Assembly: GCF_003334305.1 (NCBI RefSeq)
Contig: NZ_QOWS01000005.1
Length of the DNA: 64,000 nt
Direction: 5' to 3' (one strand)
Source: Escherichia coli
GTDB taxonomy: Bacteria; Pseudomonadota; Gammaproteobacteria; Enterobacterales; Enterobacteriaceae
Made by a program: the position numbers and the translations under genes. This document shows positions 18,499 to 20,172 of this stretch, piece after piece. Every line of letters begins with the position of its first letter. Positions within the stretch are counted from its first letter, which is position 1. The notes under the pieces were generated by a model. The model was not told the origin of the DNA, searched no databases, and worked only from the letters and a program-made list of their open reading frames with translations.

Positions 18499-20172
18499 AT
18501 GAATATAAAGACGCTTAACGTCAGCCTTTTGTCTTTTTCTATTATTACAGCATTGTTTCCATTGAACGCGATGGCAACAAAATTAACCATAGAGCAGCGC
18601 CTTGAATTGCTTGAAAATGAATTGTCGCAAAATAAACAAGAGCTGAAAGCAACACAGAATGAACTGGGAGTATATAAATCCCGACTTTCGACCTTACAAA
18701 AAAGCATCACGGAAAACAAATATAAATCAGCCTCGCTTGCTGAAATATCAGCGACATCTCCCGTCGCTGATAACATCAAAAATGAAAACGGTGAACAGAA
18801 CTCGTTTACCGCAGCGCATACTATAAATGGATCGCAGCAAGTTGCCGTTATTGAAAGTAAAGGCGACAAAACCACTATCGAAAGCGTGACCCTGAAAGAT
18901 ATCAGTAAATATATAAAGGATGATATTGGGTTCAGCTATCAGGGGTACTTCCGCTCAGGCTGGGGTACTGGTAATCACGGCTCACCACAAACTTATGCAG
19001 CGGGTTCTCTGGGACGTTTTGGTAATGAGATGAGCGGTTGGTTTGACCTGACCTTAAATCAGCGTGTTTATAATCAGGACGGTAAAACGGCAAATGCGGT
19101 CGTTACCTATGATGGCAACGTGGGTGAGCAGTATAACGATGCCTGGTTTGGTGACAGTGCCAATGAAAATATCATGCAGTTCAGCGATATTTACCTGACA
19201 ACGCGAGGTTTTTTACCCTTCGCACCAGAGGCAGACTTCTGGGTCGGCAAACATAAACTCCCGCAATATGAGATCCAGATGCTGGACTGGAAAACCTTAA
19301 CCACGGATGTCGCCGCGGGTGTGGGGATTGAAAACTGGGCACTTGGTGTAGGGCTGTTTGATATGTCCTTAAGCCGTGATGATGTCGATGTTTACTCTCG
19401 TGATTTTTCGCGTACCAGCCAGATGAATACCAATTCTGTGGATGTTCGTTATCGCAATATCCCGTTATGGGATGATGCGACATTATCATTAATGGCTAAA
19501 TATTCCGCACCTAATAAAACGGATCAACAACAAGATAACGAAAATGACAACAGTTATTTTGAAATGAAAGATAGCTGGATGCTGACTTCTGTTTTACGGC
19601 AAAACCTGCAACGCGATACGTTTAATGAATTTACGTTACAGGTTGCCAATAATTCCTATGCCAGCAGTTTTGCCAGTTTCTCAGATGCCAGTAATACGAT
19701 GGCGCATGGTCGCTATTACTATGGTGATCATACCAATGGGATCGCCTGGCGTTTAATCTCTCAGGGCGAGATGTATCTTACTGACAATATTATTATGGCT
19801 AACGCGCTTGTCTATTCTCACGGCGAAGATGTTTATAGTTATGAAAGTGGTGCTCATAGTGATTTTGACAGTATTCGCACTGTAATAAGACCGGCCTGGA
19901 TCTGGAATACATGGAATCAGACGGGGCTTGAATTAGGCTGGTTTAAGCAACAGAACAAAACTCAGCAGGGTGTAACACTAAATGAATCGGCTTATAAAAC
20001 GACACTCTGGCATGCATTGAAAGTGGGTGAAAGCATTTTAGGTTCACGACCAGAAATTCGCTTCTATGGAACGTATATCAATATTCTGGATAACGAATTA
20101 TCGAATTTTAAGTTTAATGAGAACAGCAAAGACGAGTTTATGGCCGGCATCCAGGCGGAAGTCTGGTGGTAA
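18499..20172 (+). CDS. LamB/ScrY-family carbohydrate-specific outer-membrane porin with N-terminal coiled-coil extension (557 aa)
   Basis: Signal peptide ([26 protein letters not shown]), about 60 aa of heptad-like coiled coil ([39 protein letters not shown]), aromatic-rich beta-barrel body, C-terminal ...EVWW as in LamB/ScrY porins. Confidence 0.7.

Follow-up and report, generated by a model that had tools for sequence, protein, structure and literature searches.

Which sugar enters the cell through a porin that is encoded inside a phosphotransferase system (PTS) operon, and what is the segment that precedes its barrel? These questions are raised by the gene at positions 18499-20172 of a 64,000-nucleotide stretch of Escherichia coli DNA (assembly GCF_003334305.1, contig NZ_QOWS01000005.1), in the following called the window. 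An earlier note, made from the sequence alone, had described the gene product as a porin ending in ...EVWW, in which a LamB-type barrel is combined with a ScrY-like N-terminal coiled coil. By our analysis the gene very probably corresponds to bgcH, which encodes the outer-membrane channel for sugars in the bgc (beta-glucoside/cellobiose) operon; BglH is a close paralogue of the porin.

The gene is intact. Its open reading frame starts with ATG, encodes 557 amino acids and ends in ...GIQAEVWW, the two C-terminal tryptophans being the aromatic end used for outer-membrane assembly. In an identical E. coli genome the same interval is annotated as 'carbohydrate porin' WP_001022772.1 by the Prokaryotic Genome Annotation Pipeline (PGAP), and the exact protein sequence under this accession is present on at least 1000 contigs. 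A search with the hidden Markov models of Pfam, which the earlier note had suggested as a check, matched LamB (PF02264) to residues 147-557 over the whole model (1-378 of 378, E 2.2e-81) and Sugarporin_N (PF11471, 'maltoporin periplasmic N-terminal extension') to residues 30-56 (E 3.9e-7), directly after the signal peptide. Reading frame, annotation and Pfam matches thus bear out the predicted porin and its C-terminus. The signal peptide is of the Sec type, with a basic n-region (K4), a hydrophobic core and a cleavage site between AMA and T at residue 26; AlphaFold2 predicted a helix at residues 2-19 of this region.

Since a single-sequence phmmer search of the PDB with the porin gave no match at E <1, the known structures were reached only with a profile built from 41 homologues, which detected LamB chains with E 1e-112 and ScrY chains with E 8e-44. 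AlphaFold2 was run on the 41-sequence alignment and returned a model with a mean predicted local distance difference test score (pLDDT) of 83.3, in which residues 146-556 form a barrel of about 18 long strands, mostly with a pLDDT above 90. Comparison of this model with the PDB using Foldseek gave maltoporin (1MPR/1MAL) and sucrose porin (1A0T/1OH2) as top matches, with template modelling (TM) scores of 0.77-0.80 normalised by target length (E 9e-26 for 1MPR, 2e-17 for 1A0T); 16-stranded porins and other outer-membrane barrels scored far lower. The confident barrel therefore matches the LamB and ScrY structures, and Pfam, AlphaFold2 and Foldseek together confirm the core of the earlier description, a porin of the LamB family with an extension of the ScrY type (Sugarporin_N). 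In an alignment with LamB made from sequence only, several aromatic residues of the greasy slide are conserved (Y6=Y150, Y41=W181, F227=F375, W420=W556), and the residues of the polar track have counterparts as well (R8=R152, R33=R173, E43=D183, D111=E258, D116=D263).

In the mature protein the extension before the barrel comprises about 120 residues (27-146), about 42 of which make up the heptad part. A single unbroken register of six heptads runs from I31 to I70, with L35, L42, L49, L56, L63 and I70 at the a positions and I31, L38, N45, T52, Y59 and L66 at the d positions. Of 2000 shuffles each, 5 reached the heptad score when residues 27-146 were shuffled and none when only residues 27-80 were. 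The a/d core shows no change or only conservative replacements across 70 distinct orthologue variants (Citrobacter, Salmonella, Enterobacter and Kluyvera), in contrast to the variable positions around it. AlphaFold2 placed one helix at residues 31-72, with a mean pLDDT of 73-88 per 10-residue block, and left residues 73-140 below 50; because this is about half of the extension, the extension as a whole is not a coiled coil. The heptad pattern that had been noticed is thus real and is accompanied by a predicted helix at the same place, but it covers about 42 residues inside an extension of about 120 and not the roughly 60 that had been claimed. Likewise, the check for a disordered linker has two outcomes, the confident helix speaking for a coiled coil and the low-confidence stretch behind it speaking against one.

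How strongly the parts of the porin are conserved was determined as the mean identity to the window porin among 109 orthologues below 90% identity. The barrel reached 88% and the last 18 residues before it 91%; the coiled coil reached 63% and residues 73-128 only 49%. All 109 orthologues are 557 amino acids long and align without gaps, so the length of the extension is constant. Two conserved motifs lie in the linker, SPVA(D/E)NIxNENGE at residues 87-100 and a second one at residues 113-146; this part of the low-pLDDT region (residues 87-146, window positions 18757-18936) has no counterpart in ScrY. Judged by this conservation, the segment between coiled coil and barrel does not appear to be uniformly plain linker. 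We know of no characterisation of this conserved stretch of about 70 residues. A bipartite extension of the BgcH/BglH type, in which the coiled coil is followed by a small structured module of about 70 residues that forms only in the trimer, is conceivable, if rather doubtful; such a module might dock on the periplasmic mouth of the barrel, on peptidoglycan or on the EIIC of the PTS and hand the sugar on.

The occurrence of the extension was followed among relatives sampled as representatives of 50%-identity clusters, using full-length sequences in which the barrel motif was found. In most of those with at least 40% identity the barrel motif begins at residue 93-171 and is preceded by a heptad-like segment; the three exceptions are two proteins with the motif at 54-57 and one whose extension has a weak heptad score. 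In all LamB-like relatives with at most 37% identity the barrel begins at residue 24-39 and an extension is missing. Among the sampled relatives, the extension therefore appears confined to the BglH/BgcH clade. More distant extension-bearing relatives are likewise encoded in PTS beta-glucoside operons, here of the BglG-antiterminator type. An N-terminal coiled coil had been taken to mark ScrY and to set it apart from LamB and BglH. This is right for LamB, which has no extension, but wrong for BglH, which carries both Sugarporin_N and LamB; the proposed comparison with the two porins accordingly gave a shared architecture with ScrY but an identity of 21-23% to it, against 53% to BglH. RafY was another porin to compare, and a group of plasmid matches (H66-H73) was considered as RafY candidates and rejected, the gene concerned being a truncated maltoporin gene beside blaCTX-M-14. 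Such a truncated maltoporin fragment lies directly downstream of ISEcp1-blaCTX-M-14 on many IncF plasmids (locus L017, 4926-6002) and was presumably left over from the chromosomal region that donated the resistance gene.

The porin gene is part of a six-gene cassette between eamA and marB that encodes a GntR regulator, the PTS components IIB, IIC and IIA, the porin and a 6-phospho-beta-glucosidase (Table 1). It lies, as predicted, between the IIA gene (end 18443) and the phospho-glucosidase gene (start 20197), and the proposed role as an outer-membrane entry route for the PTS substrate is plausible, since the porin is encoded inside the PTS operon. The cassette was found in 2564 of 5426 complete E. 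coli genomes (47%), and in strain CFT073 it occupies the same site between marB and eamA. Citrobacter and Salmonella carry the same six-gene module (L010 3916-10139 and L011 3942-10143, respectively) at other chromosomal sites with unrelated flanks, showing that the cassette moves as a module between enterobacterial genera. A separate observation concerns a Klebsiella IncFIB plasmid (L008), on which a BglH-like porin gene with 50% identity to the window porin lies between insertion sequence elements, with yieL- and yieK-like genes downstream.

Neelakanta, Sankar and Schnetz reportedly described in 2009 the bgc operon bgcE-F-I-H-A with the divergent gene bgcR; their abstract is said to name the porin bgcH as the fifth gene and to report CRP-dependent expression. 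A secondary source lists five genes for the bgc operon of E. coli, among them those for IIB, IIA, IIC and a phospho-beta-glucosidase, and the content and order of the window cassette as well as the divergent GntR-type regulator match that description (PMC3585215). CFT073 has, and K-12 lacks, a cluster of six genes described as 'cellobiose PTS' (c1955-c1960; PMC2831201). The cassette found in CFT073 is consistent with this cluster, although the new C_RS tags of the RefSeq record preclude direct matching. Because the genes present, their order, the type of regulator and the occurrence in a uropathogenic B2 strain all fit, we judge that the locus is bgc and that the porin gene is the same gene as bgcH. 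The novelty implied by the earlier note did not hold, since the locus matches a published operon and is carried by nearly half of the complete E. coli genomes; the porin, its operon and its domain architecture are already known (PF11471 and PF02264 in Pfam, PGAP, bgc operon).

For the substrate, the formation of a trimer and the role of the coiled coil in sugar passage we infer the following course. After cleavage of the signal peptide, the porin would insert into the outer membrane as a LamB-type barrel of roughly 18 strands, where an aromatic greasy slide and a polar track would let beta-glucosides (cellobiose, arbutin, salicin) diffuse across. In the periplasm the sugars would be taken over by the co-encoded PTS of the Lac/cellobiose family (IIB, IIC, IIA), which would import and phosphorylate them, and the phosphorylated sugars would then be cleaved by the co-encoded 6-phospho-beta-glucosidase of glycoside hydrolase family 1 (GH1). 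Also on the periplasmic side, residues 31-72 would make up a coiled coil like those of ScrY and BglH, presumably with one helix per subunit of the trimer, bundling the N-termini below the barrel. By analogy with ScrY, this coiled coil could stabilise the trimer, extend the sugar slide at low affinity, or both.

Several observations weigh against the assignment as the bgc sugar channel. Two NCBIfam maltoporin models gave the porin 204 and 117 bits, below their cut-offs of 394 and 765, and on these scores the name 'maltoporin', which some sources give to orthologues, was rejected. The low pLDDT of residues 73-140 belongs here as well. BgcH is the name that we take the window porin to have, and the equation with bgc is based on which genes are present and in what order, on the description in a secondary source and on the presence in CFT073, not on a comparison with the published sequence. 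In the LamB alignment, W74 of the greasy slide aligns to D214 (W216 is two residues off) and W358 to L514, and the constriction residue Y118 is K265 in the porin. BglH departs from LamB in the same way at all three positions. Since W74, W358 and Y118 are not kept, the specificity of the porin probably differs from that of LamB.

Three other explanations were weighed against a beta-glucoside channel with a functional coiled coil. A ScrY orthologue, that is a sucrose porin, would share the Sugarporin_N and LamB architecture and would explain the TM-score of 0.80 (on the target) to 1A0T. The identity to ScrY is less than half of that to BglH, however, and the neighbouring genes encode a PTS of the Lac/cellobiose family and a GH1 enzyme, with no sucrose PTS or sucrose-6-phosphate hydrolase nearby; moreover, the ScrY coiled coil runs almost straight into the barrel, whereas about 70 residues intervene in the window porin. 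Because identities and gene context oppose it, this explanation is effectively refuted, and we give it next to no credence. The channel could instead serve other beta-linked di- or oligosaccharides, for example glucomannan-derived or gentiobiose-type sugars. The PTS components and the regulator resemble GmuR/Bgu-type systems of Gram-positive bacteria tied to glucomannan products (PMC3585215), the residues at the LamB positions Y118 and W358 are unlike those of LamB, and descriptions call the operon cryptic, its use being limited to low temperature or to promoter mutants. We nevertheless think this unlikely. Secondary literature reports that cellobiose, arbutin and salicin are used, the score of the GH1 enzyme far exceeds the cut-off set for the 6-phospho-beta-glucosidase model, and BglH, the closest characterised relative, is described as a porin that takes up aryl-beta-glucosides (PMC2646131).

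The last of the three concerns the extension, which may be a flexible tether or an assembly aid without a role in sugar passage and not a functional trimeric coiled coil. This would fit the low pLDDT of its second half, its conservation below that of the barrel in both coiled coil and linker, and the electrophysiology of DcaP, which suggested an N-terminus without a transport role. On the other hand, the a/d core is kept across the 70 variants and the protein length is constant without gaps, the heptads exceed those of shuffled sequences, the Sugarporin_N model matches and the helix at residues 31-72 is confident. A mere tether is therefore quite improbable, and a ScrY/BglH-type coiled coil remains our preferred reading of residues 31-72.

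Whether the operon can be expressed in the window strain is a separate matter. Its divergent regulator gene is split into two in-frame open reading frames, one with the helix-turn-helix (HTH) domain (15900-16157) and one with the UTRA domain (15459-15872). The two domains are parted by a nonsense codon, AAA (Lys86) having changed to TAA at codon 86 (15900-15902); a second change is T138R. In the identical genome, PGAP calls the gene a pseudogene with an 'internal stop'. Four other genomes have an intact regulator of 232 amino acids with AAA at this codon. The TAA allele was found in only 9 of the 5426 complete E. coli genomes, using a 31-mer match requiring TAA, and the gene itself is carried by about 2550. 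BgcR is reported to be a positive regulator or activator (PMC3585215). With a nonsense codon in the gene of a reported activator, the window strain can probably not induce the operon, porin included, barring a promoter-up mutation. The window strain thus has no functional positive regulator BgcR, which concerns the function of the locus in this strain and not its identity. Use of beta-glucosides via the bgc route should therefore not be assumed for a strain that lost the regulator by a rare nonsense mutation.

A 16-bp motif, TGTGAYCAATGTAMCA, in the divergent promoter region is shared by E. coli, Citrobacter and Salmonella, whereas the intergenic DNA around it has diverged. Compared with the CRP consensus it has two mismatches in E. 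coli and one in Citrobacter and Salmonella. A search of the window with the CRP consensus gave 23 matches where 28 were expected, which is not above chance. A near-palindrome of 19 nucleotides at 16259-16277 was considered as an operator and rejected, its left half not being kept in Citrobacter and Salmonella, where only 16272-16287 is conserved. Downstream of the IIA gene, a stem-loop lies in an intergenic segment of 71 nucleotides with a predicted RNA folding energy of -20.7 kcal/mol, and the 3' arm of its stem includes GGAGG. Citrobacter (L010) and Salmonella (L011) have the stem too; their loops differ, and one pair has changed in a compensatory way (CAG/CTG to CAA/TTG). The stem-loop may act as an attenuator within the operon or as an RNA stabiliser, and it could conceivably set the dosage of the porin within the operon. 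A second hairpin lies at the end of the cassette, in a segment (21630-21700, 71 nucleotides) folding with -22.6 kcal/mol, and is likely a bidirectional terminator that marks the cassette end. Consensus scans for promoters and terminators gave 17 matches against 16.3 expected and 5 against 5.8, respectively, without enrichment over shuffles, and an Rfam scan found no known RNA family inside the operon.

According to PGAP, the chromosomal order in the window is dgcZ, mgtS/T, ydeE, eamA, the cassette, marB-marA-marR and marC. For EIIC the start at 16782 was taken from PGAP; the longest open reading frame starts at 16743. Outside the cassette, Rfam gave a full-length match to the Hfq-binding small RNA STnc560 at 12704-12917 on the plus strand (282 bits, E 4e-65), between dgcZ and ydeE, where PGAP annotates MgtS and MgtT on the opposite strand.

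Table 1. Positions of the porin, its parts and the other elements of the cassette in the window (aa, amino acid residues of the porin).
Feature	Position	Strand	Basis
Porin gene, matches bgcH	18499-20172	+	Open reading frame, Pfam, AlphaFold2, Foldseek, 53% identity to BglH
Porin signal peptide	aa 1-26 = 18499-18576	+	Sequence features
Porin coiled coil (predicted)	aa 31-72 = 18589-18714	+	Heptads, AlphaFold2 helix
Porin low-confidence linker with conserved motifs	aa 73-146 = 18715-18936	+	AlphaFold2, orthologue alignment
Porin LamB-type barrel	aa 147-557 = 18937-20169	+	Pfam LamB, AlphaFold2
GntR/HutC-family regulator gene, bgcR-like, divergent, pseudogene here	15459-16157	-	Two in-frame open reading frames; PGAP 'internal stop'
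Conserved 16-bp motif TGTGAYCAATGTAMCA, candidate CRP site or BgcR operator	16272-16287		Consensus match, conservation
PTS EIIB, lactose/cellobiose family	16356-16667	+	NCBIfam TIGR00853, E 1.2e-24; PGAP 'PTS sugar transporter subunit IIB'
PTS EIIC, lactose/cellobiose family	16782-18104	+	NCBIfam TIGR00410, 335 bits against a cut-off of 236
PTS EIIA, lactose/cellobiose family	18132-18443	+	NCBIfam NF007768 and TIGR00823, E 1e-29 to 1e-30; PGAP
Stem-loop with 11-bp stem, TTTCCTCCAGT-GCGATA-GCTGGAGGAAA	18447-18474	+	Terminator-like scan; between IIA stop and porin start
GH1 6-phospho-beta-glucosidase, bgcA-like	20197-21636	+	NCBIfam NF007154, 1034 bits against a cut-off of 624; PGAP
GC-rich hairpin of 12 bp between the converging glucosidase and marB genes	21661-21688		RNA fold

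As a description the finding thus holds; its biology is ordinary, and as a discovery it is of little weight. Both the gene and its accessory operon are known, and the combination of domains is one that Pfam already models and that the well-studied paralogue BglH has as well. What is added here is the correction of the coiled-coil claim for BglH, the mapping of the extension, among the sampled relatives, to the BglH/BgcH clade and the demonstration that the cassette is far from rare and is mobile as a module. The porin also provides one more well-conserved case for the unsettled function of periplasmic coiled coils on passive porins.

Apart from bgc itself, the closest characterised relative is in the bgl operon of K-12. 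Its BglH (YieC) was reportedly described by Andersen, Rak and Benz in 1999 as a cryptic carbohydrate-specific porin. The alignment of BglH with the window porin extends from the signal peptide to the final residue and shows 53% identity over 541 positions; both have the same Pfam architecture (Sugarporin_N at 29-59 of BglH, E 1.4e-11, followed by LamB). They have in common the start of the coiled coil, LT(I/V)EQRLELLE, the motif TLKD-SK--KD-IGFSY before the barrel and identical channel residues, with K at LamB position 118 among them, and both are encoded within a PTS beta-glucoside operon. They differ in the heptad stretch, which spans about 42 residues in the window porin and about 30 in BglH, and in the operon, bgl having the antiterminator BglG and a single glucose-family EIIBCA where the window locus has a GntR regulator and a three-protein PTS of the Lac/cellobiose family.

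ScrY (PDB 1A0S/1A0T/1OH2), compared here as the protein from the plasmid cluster scrK-scrY-scrA-scrB-scrR, shares with the window porin the combination of Sugarporin_N (ScrY 28-58, E 2.7e-10) and LamB, with an extension before an 18-stranded LamB-type barrel, at an identity of only 21-23%. It is also encoded with the PTS for its own substrate, but sugar and operon differ. Its extension has about 70 residues and leads almost directly into the barrel (LamB domain from residue 97), whereas that of the window porin has about 120 and includes the linker of about 70 residues that has no equivalent in ScrY. The first 42 residues of mature ScrY are a coiled coil, and its 70-residue N-terminus was proposed to act as a periplasmic sugar-binding sink; only in ScrY peptides is a parallel oligomeric coiled coil known that binds sugar with low affinity, and the role of such N-termini in passive channels has been called unclear (bioRxiv 10.1101/306035). 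LamB (PDB 1MAL/1AF6/1MPR), at 24.5% identity, has the barrel fold, most slide and polar-track residues and the C-terminal WW in common with the window porin. Its mature protein, unlike that of the window porin, begins at the barrel without an N-terminal extension, and it serves an ATP-binding cassette (ABC) transporter, while the window porin lies with a PTS.

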